A DNA stretch of 64,000 nucleotides from Gammaproteobacteria bacterium (GTDB taxonomy: Bacteria; Pseudomonadota; Gammaproteobacteria; S012-40): the NCBI GenBank assembly GCA_015487785.1, contig WFPC01000025.1, forward strand, positions 6,654 to 70,653, read 5' to 3'. A program made the translations under genes and the position numbers. Positions 21,206-35,338 of this stretch are shown here, piece by piece (position 1 is the stretch's first letter; the number at the start of each line of letters is the position of its first letter). The notes under the pieces were generated by a model, which was not told the DNA's origin, searched no databases, and saw only the letters and a list, made by a program, of their open reading frames with translations.

Positions 21206-22198
21206 ATGAATAACGCGGACAAAAAGCGGCTGCTACGTGAGATGCTGTTTGCTCGGCGCTTCGAAGAGCGTTGCTACGAAGCCTATGTGGAACGCAAGAT
21301 CGGTGGTTTCTTGCACTTGTATCCGGGCCAGGAGGCCTGTTGCTTCGGAGTAATGGAGGCAGCCAGGCCGGGTCACGACTACGTGATCACCGGTTATCGC
21401 GACCATGTTCACGCGATCAAGTGTGGCGCCGATCCCAAGGAAGTCATGGCCGAGCTCTATGGCAAGGAAACCGGTTCCAGCAAGGGTCGCGGTGGTTCCA
21501 TGCACATCTTCGACGTCAAGCACCGTTTCATGGGAGGCTATGCCTTGGTGGGCGGGCCCTTTCCGCTGGCGGCCGGCATGGCCAAGGCCATCAAGCTCAA
21601 GGGGGGCGACGAGATCGCCATCTGCTTCCTGGGCGATGCGGCCAACAACCAGGGCACCTTCCACGAGGCGCTCAACATGGCCTCGGTGTGGAAACTGCCG
21701 GTGCTGTATGTGTGCGAGAACAACCTCTATGGCATCGGCACCCGCATCGACCGTTCCACCGCGGTGACCGACCAGTACAAGCGTGTCGCGGCCTACGATA
21801 TTCCCGCCGCCCAGGTGGACGGCCAGGATATCGAGACCGTCTATGAGGCGGCCAAAGTGGCGGTGGAGCATGTGCGTTCCGGCAAGGGCCCGTATTTCCT
21901 CGAGCTGATGACCTATCGTTACCGTGGTCACTCCATGTCCGACTCCAATGCCTACCGTTCCAAGGACGAGGAGAAGGAATGGGCCAATCGCGATCCCATC
22001 TATATCCTGCGTGACCGCCTCATCGAGGCCGGCGAACTCAGCGAGGACGAGTACAAGGCCATGGACAAGACCATCATCGATGAAATCGAGAACGAAGTAA
22101 TCAAATTCGCCGAGGAATCCCCCGAGCCGCCGGTGGAGGAGCTGGAGAAATACGTGCTGGCGGAGAACGACCCCTGGGTACACGGAGGCGTGAAGTAA
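21206..22198 (+). CDS. pdhA: Pyruvate dehydrogenase E1 alpha subunit
   Basis: GFLHLYPGQEA, GRGGSMH, GDAANNQG ThDP motif, YRYRGHSMSD. Confidence 0.93.
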   Translation: MNNADKKRLLREMLFARRFEERCYEAYVERKIGGFLHLYPGQEACCFGVMEAARPGHDYVITGYRDHVHAIKCGADPKEVMAELYGKETGSSKGRGGSMHIFDVKHRFMGGYALVGGPFPLAAGMAKAIKLKGGDEIAICFLGDAANNQGTFHEALNMASVWKLPVLYVCENNLYGIGTRIDRSTAVTDQYKRVAAYDIPAAQVDGQDIETVYEAAKVAVEHVRSGKGPYFLELMTYRYRGHSMSDSNAYRSKDEEKEWANRDPIYILRDRLIEAGELSEDEYKAMDKTIIDEIENEVIKFAEESPEPPVEELEKYVLAENDPWVHGGVK

Positions 22199-23178
22199 TG
22201 GCTGAAATGATGTTTTGGGAAGCGGTGCGCCGCGCTCACGATGAGGAAATGGCCCGTGATCCGCTGGTGATCGCCATGGGTGAGGACATCGGCGTGGCCG
22301 GTGGAACCTACAAGGCCACCCAGGGCTTGTGGGACAAATACGGTCCGGAGCGGGTGATCGACACCCCGATTTCCGAGAACGGGTTCACCGGCCTGGGAAT
22401 AGGGGCCTCGTTCCTGGGGGTGCGACCCATCATCGAGATCATGTCGGTGAATTTCGCCTGGCTGGCCATGGACCAGATCTTCAACACGGCGGCCAAGGTG
22501 CGTTACATGTCCGGCGGCCAGTTGGAGGCGCCGGTGGTGATCCGTTCGCCCGGCGGTTGTGCCCATCAACTGGGGGCCCAGCATTCGGCACGCATGGAGA
22601 AGGTCTTCATGGGCGTGGCCGGGCTGCGTGTGGTGACCCCTTCCAATCCCCGCCAGGCCTATGGCCTGATCAAGTCGGCGGTGCGCTGCAATGACCCGGT
22701 GTTCATCAATGAGCACGAGTTGATGTACAACATGAAGGGTGAGGTGCCCGACGGGGAATACTTCCATCCCCTGGAAGGCTCGGAAGTGGCCCGCGAGGGC
22801 AAGGACGTGACCCTGTTCGGTTATAACGTCTCGGTGCACTGGTGCCTGCAGGCGGCGGAGATCCTCTCCAAACAACATGGCATAGAGGCCGAGGTGGTCG
22901 ATCTCTACAGCCTGTCACCGCTGGATCGCAAGGGTATCGTCGAATCGGTGAGCAAGACCCATCGCGCGGTGATCGCCGAGGAAGCTGAGCCGGCAGTGGG
23001 TGTGGGTGCCGAGGTCATGGCCATCCTCAACGAGGAATGTTTCTTCGAACTGGACGCCGCGCCGGTGCGGGTGTCTGCTGCCAATGTGCCGGTGCCCTAC
23101 AACCATGGCTTGGAGAAGGCGGCCATTCCCAACGCGAAGGACGTGGTGGAGGCCGTGCTGAGCCTGTATGGCCGTTGA
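22198..23178 (+). CDS. pdhB: Pyruvate dehydrogenase E1 beta subunit
   Basis: GEDIG, DTPISE, RPIIEIM, GAQHS; translationally coupled to pdhA. Confidence 0.93.
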   Translation: MAEMMFWEAVRRAHDEEMARDPLVIAMGEDIGVAGGTYKATQGLWDKYGPERVIDTPISENGFTGLGIGASFLGVRPIIEIMSVNFAWLAMDQIFNTAAKVRYMSGGQLEAPVVIRSPGGCAHQLGAQHSARMEKVFMGVAGLRVVTPSNPRQAYGLIKSAVRCNDPVFINEHELMYNMKGEVPDGEYFHPLEGSEVAREGKDVTLFGYNVSVHWCLQAAEILSKQHGIEAEVVDLYSLSPLDRKGIVESVSKTHRAVIAEEAEPAVGVGAEVMAILNEECFFELDAAPVRVSAANVPVPYNHGLEKAAIPNAKDVVEAVLSLYGR

Positions 23179-23232: not shown

Positions 23233-23259
23233 CATCGCCCGGCTCAGCGCCGGGCGATG
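23233..23259. other. Perfect 11-bp inverted repeat in the pdhB-pdhC spacer
   Basis: CATCGCCCGGC-TCAGC-GCCGGGCGATG; no U-tract. Confidence 0.7.
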
Positions 23260-23279
23260 CAATATCTATGGGAAGAATT

Positions 23280-26200
23280 ATGGCTGAACCTTATATCATT
23301 AAGATGCCCCAGCTTTCCGACACCATGACCGAAGGCGTGCTGGTGAGCTGGGAAAAGAATATTGGTGATAAGGTCGAGCGTGGCGACATCGTTGCCACGG
23401 TGGAAACCGACAAGGCGGTGATGGACGTGGAGGTGTTCCGCGAGGGTTACCTGTCCGGGCCGCTGGCCGAGATCGACGCCGTGGTGCCGGTGGGCGAACC
23501 CATCGCCTACCTGGTGGCCACGCCGGAAGAGGTTCAGCGCGATGGCGCCGCGCCGGCCGCCGAGCCGGTGGTGGCGGAACAGGAACCACCCGCCGAGGCC
23601 ACATCCAGTGCGCCGGCCGCGGCCAGCTATACCATCAAGATGCCCCAGCTTTCCGACACCATGACCGAGGGTGTGATGGTGAGCTGGGAAAAGAATATCG
23701 GCGACAAGGTCGAGCGTGGCGATACCGTTGCCACGGTGGAGACCGACAAGGCGGTGATGGACGTGGAGGTGTTCCGCGAGGGCTACCTGTCCGGGCCGCT
23801 GGCCGAGATCGATGCAGTGGTGCCGGTGGGCGAGCCCATCGCCTACCTGGTGGACAGCCCCGAACAGGTGGTGGACGAAACCCGGGCCACTGGGGCGGTC
23901 GCTGCCGCCAGGCCTTCCGAGGAAACCCCGCGCCATGCCGCCGCCAGCCATCCGGTGCCTGGCCACAAGCCGCCCACGCCCCACGTGGACACCGGCGACA
24001 ACAAACCCGCGCCTCGGCCCGACAACAAGCATGCCTCGCCCTATGCGCGCAAGCTGGCCGGTGCCCTGCACGTGAACCTGAACAATGTGAAGGGCAGCGG
24101 TGCCGGTGGTGCCATCACCGGTGCCGACGTGCTGGCGGCCCAGCCCATCGAACGGCCCACCGAGGTGGCGCGCGAGGTTCCGGCCCATGCCATGCCGGAG
24201 ATCCAGGTGCCTGGTCATGGCCGCCCCATGACGACCATGGAGCGGGCGGTGAGTCACTCCATGACCGCCTCGCTGACCATGCCCACCTTCCATGTCACCG
24301 TCAATGCCAAGCCCGGGGCTCTGATCAAGGCGGCCAAGAAGGCCGGCGTGTCGGTGACCGTAGCCATTGCCAAGGCTTGTGCCGAGGCCATCAAGCAACA
24401 TCCCACCATCAACTGGTGTTACCAGCCGGTGGACAAGCTGGTGGAGCGAGACAACGTCGACATCGGCATGGCGGTGGCGGCCGATGGCGGTGGTTTGGTG
24501 GTGCCGGTGTTGCGCCATTGTGAGTCCCGCAGCCTGGAGGATCTCAACGAGGCCTGGGGCGATCTGGTGCAGCGGGCGCGCAAGCGCCGCCTGGCACCGG
24601 AGGAATACGCCAATCCCACCTTCATGGTATCCAACATGGGCATGCTGGGGGTCAGTTATTTCGATGCCATTCCCACTCCCGGCACTGCCGCCATCCTGGC
24701 CATCGCCTCTGCCGGTCCCGAGGGCATGCCGCTTACCATCACCGCTGATCATCGGGTGGTCAATGGTGCCGAGGTGGCCCTGTATCTCAACACGCTCAAG
24801 CAAGCCATCGAACAGCCGGAGACCTGGATGGGCCCCATGGGGCCAGCCATCCCCGAGGGTGACTGGGATTACGATGTCGTGGTCATCGGTGGCGGCCCCG
24901 GCGGCGAGGATTGCGCCCGTGAGCTGGCCGAACACGGTCTCAAGGTGGCCATGATCAACGACGCGCCCTTTCCCGGTGGTGAGTGCCTGTGGCGGGGCTG
25001 TATTCCCTCCAAGGCCTGGCGGGCGGCGGCCGACCGTATCCGTGACCGTGCCCACGACGAACACCTCGGGGTGGAAGGTACCACCGGCGCGAGGCTGGCG
25101 TGGGACAAGCTGGAGGCCACCCGCCGCAAGGTGCTGGAGACCCGTGGCCAGATGGCCCTCAAGACCGATACCGGAGTCAAGATCAAGGTCATCCAGGGCT
25201 ATGCCAGTTTCGAGACCGATCACCGGGTCTTCGTGGACACCAGCGGCAACAGCGATGACCCCCATCGTCGCGCCGAGCCGGGCGACAAGTCCCGCGGTGA
25301 GCGCATCACCTTCGGTTGTGCCGTCATCGCCACCGGGGCTCCTCCCTTCGTGCCGCCCATTCCTGGTGCTCGCGAGGGCCTGGCCACGGGGGGGGTGCTC
25401 ACCTCCGATACCGTATGGGGTCTGCCGGGTGTGCCCCGACGCCTGGGCGTGATCGGCGGTGGTGCCATCGGTATGGAAATGGCACAGATCTTCCAGGACT
25501 TCGGTACCAGGGTCACCTTGTTGGAAGGGCAGGACCGAGTGTTGGCCGAGGTGGAGCCGGAGATCGCCAAGAGTCTCACCGCAGTGCTCAACGACGATCC
25601 CAACCTGGACATCGTCACTTCGGTCAAGGTGACCGAGATCAGCGGCGAGCCCGGCGCCATGGTGATGCGCTACGAAGATGCCGATGGCAATACGCAGCAG
25701 GTGGAATGCGATTATGTGCTGATGGCCACCGGCAAGCGTCCGGTACTCGATGGCCTCGGCCTGGAGGCCGCCGGGGTGGCGGTGGAGCAGGGGGTGGTCA
25801 AGGCCGACGAGCGTTGTCGCACCAGTGTGCCGCACATCTTCGCCGTGGGCGATGTCATCGGGGGTCTGATGTTGGCCCATACCGCCGGCCAGCAGGGCCG
25901 GGTGGCGGCAGCCACCATTCTCGGCGAAGACATGCGTTACGACGAGGCCAAGGATTGCGGGGTGATCTTCACCCGCCCGGAAGCGGCCTTCGTGGGTCTC
26001 AGCCTGGAGCAGGCCAAGGCGCGGGGCATCGACGCCGCCGAGGTCAAGGTGCCCATCAGCATCGACGCCAAGGCCATGATCACCAACGAGACCCATGGCA
26101 TGATCAAGATCGTGGCCGACAAGAACAGCCACCGCATCGTCGGCGTGCATTTCCTGGCCGATCATGCCGACACCCTGATCGGTGAGGGCGTGATGATGGT

Positions 26201-26330
26201 TTCCGGCGAAATGACCCTGGAGCAGGTGGCTCAGGCTATCCATCCCCATCCTACGCAGACGGAAATGTTCGGCGAGATGGCGCGGCGGCTGTTGTCACGC
26301 TTGCGCCGTTCCAAGCGCAAGAAAAAATAG
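23280..26330 (+). CDS. pdhC-lpdA: Fused dihydrolipoamide acetyltransferase (E2: two lipoyl domains, E3-binding domain, catalytic domain) and dihydrolipoamide dehydrogenase (E3)
   Basis: Two VETDKA lipoyl motifs, ASPYARKLA binding domain, DHRVVNG catalytic motif, then VVIGGGPGG, GGECLWRGCIPSK, GGGAIG, HPHPTQTE. One uninterrupted frame. Confidence 0.92.
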   Translation: MAEPYIIKMPQLSDTMTEGVLVSWEKNIGDKVERGDIVATVETDKAVMDVEVFREGYLSGPLAEIDAVVPVGEPIAYLVATPEEVQRDGAAPAAEPVVAEQEPPAEATSSAPAAASYTIKMPQLSDTMTEGVMVSWEKNIGDKVERGDTVATVETDKAVMDVEVFREGYLSGPLAEIDAVVPVGEPIAYLVDSPEQVVDETRATGAVAAARPSEETPRHAAASHPVPGHKPPTPHVDTGDNKPAPRPDNKHASPYARKLAGALHVNLNNVKGSGAGGAITGADVLAAQPIERPTEVAREVPAHAMPEIQVPGHGRPMTTMERAVSHSMTASLTMPTFHVTVNAKPGALIKAAKKAGVSVTVAIAKACAEAIKQHPTINWCYQPVDKLVERDNVDIGMAVAADGGGLVVPVLRHCESRSLEDLNEAWGDLVQRARKRRLAPEEYANPTFMVSNMGMLGVSYFDAIPTPGTAAILAIASAGPEGMPLTITADHRVVNGAEVALYLNTLKQAIEQPETWMGPMGPAIPEGDWDYDVVVIGGGPGGEDCARELAEHGLKVAMINDAPFPGGECLWRGCIPSKAWRAAADRIRDRAHDEHLGVEGTTGARLAWDKLEATRRKVLETRGQMALKTDTGVKIKVIQGYASFETDHRVFVDTSGNSDDPHRRAEPGDKSRGERITFGCAVIATGAPPFVPPIPGAREGLATGGVLTSDTVWGLPGVPRRLGVIGGGAIGMEMAQIFQDFGTRVTLLEGQDRVLAEVEPEIAKSLTAVLNDDPNLDIVTSVKVTEISGEPGAMVMRYEDADGNTQQVECDYVLMATGKRPVLDGLGLEAAGVAVEQGVVKADERCRTSVPHIFAVGDVIGGLMLAHTAGQQGRVAAATILGEDMRYDEAKDCGVIFTRPEAAFVGLSLEQAKARGIDAAEVKVPISIDAKAMITNETHGMIKIVADKNSHRIVGVHFLADHADTLIGEGVMMVSGEMTLEQVAQAIHPHPTQTEMFGEMARRLLSRLRRSKRKKK
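23301..23853 (+). repeat. Direct repeat of the lipoyl-domain coding sequence (23301-23517 and 23637-23853)
   Basis: 217-bp copies with 13 mismatches by manual count, 11 of them synonymous. Confidence 0.92.
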
Positions 26331-26354: not shown

Positions 26355-27560
<1,206 letters not shown>

Positions 27561-27694
27561 AACCCGTGGCGCGGTTTTGTGACCGCGCTCTCATGGCCGA
27601 GGGGGGATACGTGATCCCTTTCACGCCTTCTTTGCCGTGCACACCCTAGAATGTTCTGGAGATGAGGGACAGGCATGAACGAAAGGAGTGTGTG

Positions 27695-33325: not shown

Positions 33326-35338
33326 ATGGGCGGTAGCACACTTCAGGTAGGAATCTCCGGACTGGCCGCGTTTCAGCGTTCACTGAGCACCATCGGCCAC
33401 AACATCTCCAATGCCAATACCGAGGGCTACTCGCGTCAGCGGGTGGATCTCACCGCGCGCAATCCCTCACCCAGTTCCGCGGGCTTCATAGGCAACGGGG
33501 TCACGGTGGAGTCGGTGCGGCGTTTCTACGACAGTTTCGCGGTTTCACAGGTGCGCTCGCGCTCGGCGGCGACGGAGTATTTCACCACCTACAAGAGCTT
33601 GGCCTCGCAGGTGGACAACCTGCTGGCCGACCCCGACGCCGGGGTATCCTCGGCGCTCAACAGCTTCTTCGATGCGGTGCAGGGAGTGGCCGACGATCCC
33701 AGCTCGGTATCGGCGCGCGAGGTCATGCTCACCGAAGGGCAGGGCCTGGTGGATCGTTTCCAGACCCTGGACGACTGGTTACAGGACCTGGGCAAGAACG
33801 CCAACGACCGCATCGTCAGCAAGGTGGGTGAGATCAACAGCCTGGCGCGCAACATCGCCAACATGAACAACGACATCATCGTGGCTTCCGGCCTCGGTGC
33901 CGGCCAGCCTCCCAATGATCTGCTGGACAAGCGCGACAAGTTGCTGGACGATCTTTCCAAGCTGATCTCGGTGAAAATCGTTGAGGGCACGGGCAACTCC
34001 ATCAATGTCTATGTGGGCAATGGCCAGAGTCTGGTATTGGACACCAACTACATGCAGCTGGAGGCGGGTATCGACCCGGACGACCCGGAGAACTACCAAG
34101 TGTCCTACCAGATGCCCAATGGCACCAGCTATCCGGTGACCGATACCCTCACCGGTGGCGAGCTGGGTGGCGTGATCGCCTTTCGCAATGAAATTCTCAA
34201 CCCCACTCGCAACAAGCTGGGCCGCCTGGCCATGGGTATTGCCATGACCTTCAACGAACAGCAGAAGCTGGGGGTGGACCTCGACGGCTTGTTGGGTGAC
34301 AACTTCTTTGAAGAACCCCTGCCGGAAGCGGTGCCCGGAGTGAACAACACCGGCGGCGAAACCCTTACAGTGACGGTGGACGACATCACCGCCATTACCA
34401 CCGCCGACTATACCCTGAGCTACAATGGTACCAACTACGTACTCACCAACCAGGACGATGGCAGCACCACCAATCTGACCATCGCCAGCGCAGGGCCGCC
34501 CATCGTTTTCGATCCGGTGGATGGCCTGAGCTTCGAGTTGAGCAATACACCGGCGGTGGGCGACGAATTTTTCATCCGCCCCACTCGGGGAGCCGCGCGC
34601 ACCTTCGAGCTGGCCATGGACAATCCCAATCGCATTGCCGCCGCCGGGCCTCTGCTCACACGTATCGACAACGGCAACCTGGGTGATGCCACCATCAGTG
34701 AGGCCACCGTGGTGGATTTCACCAATGCGGCATTGACCACATCGCCGGGTTCCTTGACGCCGCCGGTGCTCATCGTGTTCGACGATCCGCCGGTACCCAC
34801 TGCGCCAGCGACCCTATCCTACAGCATCTACGACAATAGCACGCCCGGCGCGCCAGTGTTGCTGGAAGCCAACATCTCCTACGATGTCAACGATCCCACC
34901 AACGGGCACGACATCTTTCCCAGCCCCGGTGGCCTGGACTACGGCTATACCGTGCGCATCGACGGGGAACCCCAACCCGGCGACCAGTTCACGGTGGAAT
35001 TCAACAGTAATGGCGTGAGTGACAACCGCAACGCCTTGTTACTGGCCGACCTGCAACAAAAAGGCACCCTGATCGGTGGCAATGCAACCTATTCCGATGT
35101 CTATAACGAGGCCGTGGTCTACGTGGGCAACCGTACACGCCAGGCGGAAATAAACCAACAGGCACAGAACGCCCTGCTGGACGAGGCCACCTCCATGCGA
35201 GAGGCGGTCTCGGGTGTCAACCTGGACGAGGAAGCGGCCAACCTGTTGCGCTATCAGCAGGCCTATGCCGCTGCGGCCCAGGTGATCACCGCCGCCGACC
35301 AGTTGTTTCAAACCCTGTTGAGTGCAGTGAGGAGCTAG
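33326..35338 (+). CDS. flgK: Hook-associated protein FlgK
   Basis: GHNISNANTEGYSRQ, NDLLDKRD, SGVNLDEEAANL. Confidence 0.97.
   Translation: MGGSTLQVGISGLAAFQRSLSTIGHNISNANTEGYSRQRVDLTARNPSPSSAGFIGNGVTVESVRRFYDSFAVSQVRSRSAATEYFTTYKSLASQVDNLLADPDAGVSSALNSFFDAVQGVADDPSSVSAREVMLTEGQGLVDRFQTLDDWLQDLGKNANDRIVSKVGEINSLARNIANMNNDIIVASGLGAGQPPNDLLDKRDKLLDDLSKLISVKIVEGTGNSINVYVGNGQSLVLDTNYMQLEAGIDPDDPENYQVSYQMPNGTSYPVTDTLTGGELGGVIAFRNEILNPTRNKLGRLAMGIAMTFNEQQKLGVDLDGLLGDNFFEEPLPEAVPGVNNTGGETLTVTVDDITAITTADYTLSYNGTNYVLTNQDDGSTTNLTIASAGPPIVFDPVDGLSFELSNTPAVGDEFFIRPTRGAARTFELAMDNPNRIAAAGPLLTRIDNGNLGDATISEATVVDFTNAALTTSPGSLTPPVLIVFDDPPVPTAPATLSYSIYDNSTPGAPVLLEANISYDVNDPTNGHDIFPSPGGLDYGYTVRIDGEPQPGDQFTVEFNSNGVSDNRNALLLADLQQKGTLIGGNATYSDVYNEAVVYVGNRTRQAEINQQAQNALLDEATSMREAVSGVNLDEEAANLLRYQQAYAAAAQVITAADQLFQTLLSAVRS

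Follow-up and report, generated by a model that had tools for sequence, protein, structure and literature searches.

The textbook picture of a 2-oxoacid dehydrogenase complex is a symmetric core to which the peripheral enzymes bind loosely, and a gene that encodes core and peripheral enzyme as one continuous polypeptide raises the question of what such a chain does and how it can assemble. A gene of this kind lies at positions 23280 to 26330 of a 64,000 nucleotide stretch of DNA from a gammaproteobacterium (GenBank assembly GCA_015487785.1, contig WFPC01000025.1, positions 6,654 to 70,653 of the forward strand; the whole stretch is hereafter called the window), where the acetyltransferase (E2) and dihydrolipoamide dehydrogenase (E3) of the pyruvate dehydrogenase (PDH) complex share a single reading frame. 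We hold with considerable confidence that it is the pdhC gene of a pdhA-pdhB-pdhC PDH operon, encoding a natural fusion of a complete E2 with a complete E3 that has orthologues across sulfur-oxidising Gammaproteobacteria. The gene is an ordinary orthologue of a known fusion and represents no new kind of system; its interest lies in the structural question.

The open reading frame (23268..26330, + strand) runs uninterrupted over 1020 codons from an upstream ATG at 23268, and its likely start is the ATG at 23280, which has GGGAAG five nucleotides upstream and yields a protein of 1016 residues, equal to the gene call (P0005). All Pfam matches of this protein exceed their gathering cut-offs, and comprise Biotin_lipoyl twice (the second at residues 122-194), E3_binding (255-289), 2-oxoacid_dh (319-521), Pyr_redox_2 (535-877, with Pyr_redox within it) and Pyr_redox_dim (898-1004). 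The original prediction for this DNA, made from the sequence alone, had read two lipoyl domains, an E3-binding domain, an E2 acetyltransferase and a complete E3 from one frame, and the open reading frame and the Pfam matches agree with it. The features of the gene are as follows:

23280..26330, + strand: pdhC-type E2-E3 fusion gene, 1016 residues (open frame, Pfam, NCBIfam and protein-collection match)
23289..23522, + strand: lipoyl domain 1, residues about 8-85, with lipoyl-lysine K49 in ETDKA (Pfam Biotin_lipoyl, in two stretches)
23625..23858, + strand: lipoyl domain 2, residues about 120-197, with lipoyl-lysine K161 (Pfam, 122-194)
24030..24134, + strand: peripheral subunit-binding domain, residues 255-289 (PF02817 at 1.6e-11)
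24222..24830, + strand: E2 acetyltransferase catalytic domain, shortened, residues 319-521 (PF00198 at 5.6e-47)
24831..24869, + strand: junction GPMGPAIPEGDWD, residues 522-534 (conservation, constant length and predicted local distance difference test, pLDDT)
24870..26279, + strand: E3 dihydrolipoamide dehydrogenase, residues 535-1004 (PF07992, PF00070 and PF02852)
26280..26327, + strand: conserved basic C-terminal helix ARRLLSRLRRSKRKKK (invariant residues; AlphaFold2 helix at 1000-1019)

Both enzymes appear to be intact. The E2 half carries the catalytic His of DHRxx(D/N)G (H495, in DHRVVNG) and the Ser of (S/T)N(L/M)G (S455); N499 stands where Asp is more usual in the first of these motifs, an Asn that is likewise present in the E2p of Azotobacter vinelandii. 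In the E3 half we find GxGxxG motifs for FAD (541-546) and NAD (730-735), the redox pair C573/C578 in CLWRGC, and the His-Glu pair H994/E999 in HPHPTQTE. Only the connector GPMGPAIPEGDW lies between the halves, which upholds the short linker of the original prediction. The best NCBIfam models are a mitochondrial-type PDH acetyltransferase for the N-terminal half and a lipoamide dehydrogenase for the C-terminal half, and the first lipoyl domain is modelled by AlphaFold2 as a beta-barrel with pLDDT 82-90. In an alignment of 69 full-length family members sharing 58-80% identity, K161, S455, H495, W520, C573/C578, H994/E999 and the GxGxxG motifs are invariant, and K49 is conserved in at least 90% of members, those with one lipoyl domain lacking that domain. 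The invariance of catalytic residues in both halves indicates that E2 and E3 are each under selection as active enzymes.

Could the fusion nevertheless be an artefact, in which two neighbouring genes were joined through a lost stop codon or a frameshift? The window belongs to a metagenome-assembled genome, and the junction near 24840 had been singled out as the place to check. Contigs of four sequencing runs span 24300-25400 with zero indels (among the Logan contigs across the junction, one of 2052 nucleotides is identical and one of 2016 nucleotides has a single substitution), but all four runs come from one hydrothermal-vent metagenome study and are probably the source samples of the window. 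The better argument against an artefact is consequently conservation. In an alignment of 75 non-identical homologues from related loci the junction is nowhere interrupted, and it recurs in frame and with conserved sequence across independent assemblies, which number in the hundreds and include complete genomes from cultured species. We give the artefact next to no chance, and regard it as already refuted by this conservation across independent genomes. A "split" version of the gene in one related genome (G176) sits in an operon that is full of frameshifts throughout, as is the adjoining argG, and we read it as an assembly-quality problem. Two candidate unfused E2 proteins (P0125 and P0130) were also rejected, as each reaches beyond E2 into the junction and the first part of E3 and is a truncated fragment of a fusion.

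The assignment to PDH draws on the operon, in which the two E1 genes lie directly upstream of the fusion:

21206..22198, + strand: pdhA, E1 alpha subunit, 330 residues (PF00676 at 2.5e-90; TIGR03182, PDH_E1_alph_y, 429 bits, above the cut-off of 393.85)
22198..23178, + strand: pdhB, E1 beta subunit, 326 residues (PF02779 and PF02780; NF006667, 370.5 bits, above the cut-off of 321)

Both subunits pass these PDH-specific NCBIfam cut-offs, the start of pdhB overlaps the stop of pdhA, and E1 alpha and E1 beta genes precede the fusion gene in 67 of 68 related loci. The host genome (2.44 Mb, 95% complete) contains two E2 catalytic domains only, those of sucB and of the fusion, and the fusion is therefore the sole PDH E2 of its genome.

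Rarity had been implied for this architecture, yet our searches indicate that it is common in sulfur-oxidising Gammaproteobacteria. Residues 400-700 of the fusion match at least 1295 database proteins, the best 120 of which are 81-100% identical over this segment; most of these 120 are approximately 1000-1050 residues long with the same domains, the shorter remainder being cut products. With residues 430-650, which span the junction, as query, about 79 of 401 genomes sampled evenly over the families of Gammaproteobacteria matched without interruption across the junction at 60-90% identity. A phylum-wide draw gave matches in 2 of 401 genomes, both in the same class, and added only one further genome. 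In a collection of species-representative genomes, close relatives of the junction segment are encoded by at least 210 stretches, and in an exhaustive representative search the whole gammaproteobacterial family falls into one cluster at 50% identity. Divergent members named by exact look-up are Acidithiobacillus sp. (WP_291509888.1), Thiohalophilus thiocyanatoxydans, Sulfuritortus calidifontis, Thiohalorhabdus methylotrophus and Thiohalorhabdus denitrificans, and Sulfuriflexus mobilis and Thiohalomonas denitrificans are also among the matches. Cultured species have annotated entries for the fusion in RefSeq and UniRef, and family members are labelled "FAD-dependent oxidoreductase", "dihydrolipoamide dehydrogenase" or "pyruvate dehydrogenase". 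The only match labelled outside Pseudomonadota, a 2078 nucleotide contig of a "Nitrospinota bacterium" (L046, JAOUNV010000573.1), is 86% identical to the query and probably reflects misbinning, not a true occurrence in that phylum.

A fusion of this type has a history. Powles and Rawlings reportedly described, in Microbiology in 1997, an E2-E3 fusion encoded by pdhC in a pdhA-pdhB-pdhC operon of Thiobacillus (Acidithiobacillus) ferrooxidans; that system is reported to pair an alpha/beta-type E1 with lipoyl, subunit-binding, acetyltransferase and E3 domains in one polypeptide, as here. The Acidithiobacillus sp. protein mentioned above (878 residues) is approximately 60% identical to the query, shares its junction motif and clusters with it in the E3 tree, but possesses one lipoyl domain where the present fusion has two. 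The gene in the window is an orthologue of this known, widespread and annotated fusion of sulfur-oxidising bacteria, and is not new. A search of the open-access literature found no paper on the E2-E3 fusion, and we know of no biochemical or structural work on T. ferrooxidans pdhC or on the present protein. The original prediction would have been refuted by an architecture both common and structurally characterised; the former holds and the latter does not, since no solved structure of the fusion was found. Indeed, in searches of the PDB by sequence and by fold (Foldseek) no chain matches both halves, and the fold matches, of at most 488 aligned columns, are all E3s. The Neisseria P64k/LpdA proteins (PDB 1bhy, 1ojt and 5u25), which are among the PDB matches to the E3 half, similarly have an E3 covalently linked to a lipoyl domain, but they contain no subunit-binding or acetyltransferase domain, and hence their E3 is not forced into a core.

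The same five-domain architecture is found in at least eight further clusters in the exhaustive representative search, at 31-35% identity, among them two archaeal fusions of 914-916 residues (P0157 and P0182) from metagenome-assembled genomes of Bathyarchaeota (MBD3186654.1) and Promethearchaeota/Asgard (MHA1682757.1). In contrast to the gammaproteobacterial family, these fusions have full-length canonical catalytic domains and long, non-conserved connectors (about 30-40 residues in the archaeal pair), and their E3 parts are scattered over several places in the E3 tree. Together, the scattered positions and the differing connectors and catalytic domains indicate that E2-E3 fusion arose repeatedly in separate events, including in archaea.

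How, then, might the gammaproteobacterial chain assemble? Its E2 half departs from the canonical form in ways that may bear on this question. Positions 7-231 of the PF00198 profile are matched in only 203 residues of the fusion. Family-wide, a 13-residue hairpin strand just before the strand of the catalytic His, and a further eight residues that would follow the domain's second helix, are gone relative to canonical E2 catalytic domains, while both segments are retained by the independent E2-E3 fusions and by the host's own sucB. The catalytic domain ends in a short helix, PETWM (518-521), after which the chain runs into E3, and no free C-terminal 3-10 helix is available for trimer-trimer knob-and-socket contacts. 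The fusion scores 317.8 bits with TIGR01349, below the cut-off of 445. R261 of the subunit-binding domain does not vary, but Val or Ala takes the place of Arg in the usual GGR(I/V) motif throughout the family, unlike in the host's sucB, and from its sequence a domain without this Arg may now bind E1 only. The canonical alpha/beta-E1 PDH of Geobacillus stearothermophilus and mitochondria shares the E1 type, the E2 domain order and the chemistry, and its structures are the closest matches by sequence in the PDB to each half (1ebd, 1b5s and 6ct0). However, it has a 60-mer E2 core, a separate E3 held on the subunit-binding domain and an E2 C terminus free for trimer-trimer contacts, whereas the fusion has a catalytic domain approximately 21 residues shorter and a subunit-binding domain devoid of the GGR(I/V) Arg.

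The junction is as well conserved as the enzymes that it connects. Nearly all members conform to the consensus IEQPExWMGPxGPAIPEG(D/N)WDYDVVVIGGGPGGEDCAR, in an alignment of 76 sequences that takes in Acidithiobacillus sp., Thiohalophilus, Sulfuritortus and Thiohalorhabdus, and the present fusion has both the shared junction PExW(M/L)G..GPAIPEG(D/N)WDYDVVVIGGGPGGEDCAR and the shortened catalytic domain. The mean frequency of the majority residue is 0.80 in the junction, compared to 0.80-0.82 in the catalytic domains and 0.38-0.57 in the three Ala/Pro-rich linkers, and junction length is identical in 59 of the 69 sequences. P0126, a stand-alone E3 from the same clade, which adjoins a conventional E1a-E1b-E2-E3 operon, starts ...VIPEGDWD; IPEGDW thus belongs to the N terminus of this E3 subfamily, which leaves only approximately six residues as the true connector. 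For the whole chain AlphaFold gives a mean pLDDT of 84 and a predicted template modelling score (pTM) of 0.59, with the junction at 75-76 and the true linkers at 29-43. For residues 310-1020 the mean pLDDT is 90.3 and pTM is 0.78, no segment falling below 50. Given that E3 makes up only 69% of the latter construct, this pTM suggests that the E2 catalytic domain and E3 are placed as one body in the model.

From established PDH chemistry, the E1 alpha2-beta2 tetramer would dock at the subunit-binding domain and reductively acetylate the lipoyl arms, the E2 domain, which would be active solely as a trimer, would pass the acetyl group to coenzyme A, and the attached E3 would reoxidise the dihydrolipoyl arm and deliver the electrons to NAD+. 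E3 in turn should be active solely as a dimer, with H994/E999 completing the active site of the partner. With E2 sites lying between trimer subunits and E3 sites completed across the dimer, each chain would take part in both a three-fold and a two-fold interface, and the forced 1:1 ratio of E2 to E3 chains that had been predicted follows directly from the fusion. Given a connector between these interfaces that is short, conserved and ordered, the E3 dimers probably serve as structural links that hold E2 trimers together, and not as peripheral passengers. By analogy with other C-terminal E2 fusions we lean, though not strongly, towards a non-canonical core in which E3 dimers replace the trimer-trimer contacts and act as two-fold struts between E2 trimers. 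Such a core could take the form of a D3 hexamer or of a tetrahedral, octahedral or icosahedral cage with E3 along its edges. The small core or cross-linked lattice that the original prediction had proposed is plausible, and is indirectly supported by the conserved and ordered junction and by the two precedents that follow.

The closest analogue is actinobacterial OdhA, in which the C terminus of an E2 trimer is joined to a dimeric E1; the product is a D3 hexamer built from two trimers and three dimers, with the C-terminal helix of E2 folded back onto its own socket (PMC10415282). OdhA/KGD (PDB 8p5t and others) resembles the present protein in that the E2 catalytic domain is C-terminally fused to an obligate dimer, but this is a topological analogy only: the partner is E1o instead of E3, OdhA is without lipoyl or subunit-binding domains, and kinship is confined to the E2 domain. 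A second precedent comes from an engineered 60-mer E2p, in which small dimeric domains fused at the C terminus lie inside the cage, at a particle-forming interface (PMC8113551), from which it follows that the canonical E2 C terminus faces the lumen near a two-fold axis. This observation bears directly on the alternative that the fusion builds a canonical 24- or 60-mer core through knob-and-socket contacts, with the fused E3 a passenger that does nothing beyond fixing the stoichiometry. If C-terminal fusions of such 60-mers lie within the cage at the two-fold interface, 60 E3 chains (approximately 3 MDa) would, by our estimate, be too large for a lumen of approximately 12 nm. The connector of only about 6-13 conserved, ordered residues and the remodelling of the E2 catalytic domain itself argue in the same direction. 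A canonical core would nonetheless agree with the fact that E2 still ends in the helix PExW(M/L), in which W520 is invariant, that the E2 part is most similar to the mitochondrial-type E2p of 60-mers, and that some members have long flexible junction inserts. We consider it unlikely on balance, and on the analogies above rank a core strutted by E3 ahead of a classical one that carries E3 as a passenger. If the strutted core is correct, it would be a PDH core architecture so far unseen, to which the missing hairpin, the changed subunit-binding domain and the basic helix at the C terminus would all be co-adaptations.

Several observations weigh against the function and assembly proposed here. 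Six members have an Ala/Pro/Ser-rich insert of 7-39 residues between W(M/L) and IPEGDW, so that a rigid connection is not obligatory. The AlphaFold predictions are monomer models of obligate oligomers and constitute weak evidence on inter-domain geometry. The literature search found no expression, activity or oligomer data for any family member, and none of the RNA runs searched holds the fusion stretch. In one genome (G296, contig C21, 4518-5822, - strand) an E2 of the short type is unfused and without the E3 half, in a disrupted operon with a GGDEF gene and others between it and E1 beta; no orthologous E3 was found elsewhere in that genome. This looks like a secondary fission or loss, and the E2 part can apparently live without fusion. 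Finally, TIGR01350, the best NCBIfam model for the E3 half, gives 386.1 bits, below its cut-off of 408.8, and in the E3 tree the fused proteins form a clade with stand-alone P0126 and with P0129 (100/99 support) that lies apart from lpdA, so the exact substrate is one that we infer.

These last two results also raise the question whether the C-terminal flavoprotein might be a disulfide reductase for some other substrate or acceptor, with the lipoyl electrons not passing to NAD+. The shortfall against TIGR01350 is accompanied by good scores of MerA-type models, at 304.8 bits, the separate clade by unusual motifs (ECLWRGC and HPHPTQTE) and a basic tail, and one protein of the clade, P0129, also carries a lipoyl domain and an AhpD-like carboxymuconolactone-decarboxylase (CMD) domain in the same chain. 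Yet the top-scoring model is still a lipoamide dehydrogenase, no variation is seen in the His-Glu pair, in the redox disulfide or in the NAD-type GxGxxG...E, the fold matches solved E3 structures with Foldseek TMt values of 0.86-0.90, and the flavoprotein is joined to a lipoyl-bearing E2 within a PDH operon. We regard a different substrate as very improbable, and favour an E3 half that, on sequence grounds, works like E3 but belongs to a divergent subfamily. A genome that depends on the fused E3 for want of another can be dismissed, given that a canonical lpdA lies directly after sucA-sucB on contig C5, in addition to four other members of the flavoprotein family in the genome. With an ordinary lpdA present elsewhere, the fused E3 is an extra, dedicated paralogue. 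Its basic amphipathic C-terminal helix (RRLLSRLRRS..., RRLLSRLRRSKRKKK, residues 1005-1020), in which R1006, R1007, R1011, L1012 and R1014 are invariant, is shared by the stand-alone E3 P0126.

The actinobacterial E2-E1 fusion recently showed that joining an E2 trimer to a dimeric partner can alter the architecture of a complex, and the E2-E3 fusion offers a second test case, present in many families of the class and in hosts that are cultured and sequenced (Sulfuriflexus mobilis, Thiohalophilus thiocyanatoxydans, Sulfuritortus calidifontis and Acidithiobacillus). It is a natural analogue of engineered cages built from trimer-dimer fusions, and the family bears on whether covalent attachment of E3 alters substrate channelling or stoichiometry in autotrophs, in which we infer the PDH complex to be mainly biosynthetic.

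Some further features of these proteins and of the locus deserve mention. Within the E3 half, a charged loop (SGNSDDPHRRAEPGDKSRGE, residues about 655-682, positions 25230-25310) has no secondary structure in the AlphaFold model and, by eye, looks like an insertion relative to canonical E3s. P0129, from a Logan contig, is a protein of 797 residues that combines an N-terminal lipoyl domain, a relative of the E3 clade and a C-terminal AhpD-like CMD domain with CxxC, and may be a self-contained lipoyl-dependent peroxide-reducing system. The host genome also encodes, on contig C48 (- strand), a 720-residue protein in which a DedA/SNARE-like membrane domain is combined with a flavoprotein disulfide reductase (CLNTGC), with a Pyr_redox_dim match at 34788-35108, and, on contig C12, a MerA that carries an HMA domain and has a CC pair at its C terminus.

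Downstream of the fusion gene, at a distance of 25 nucleotides, lies one further gene:

26355..27560, + strand: argG, argininosuccinate synthase (PF00764 and PF20979)

The fusion gene is followed by argG in 40 of 74 related loci. The sole terminator-like site for this run of genes is found after argG, at 27549-27571, and the four genes may thus be co-transcribed on one transcript, with argG standing outside the complex. In the spacer between pdhB and pdhC, a GC-rich inverted repeat at 23237-23257 (CGCCCGGC TCAG CGCCGGGCG) has no T-run behind it, and could form a hairpin involved in mRNA stability or processing.

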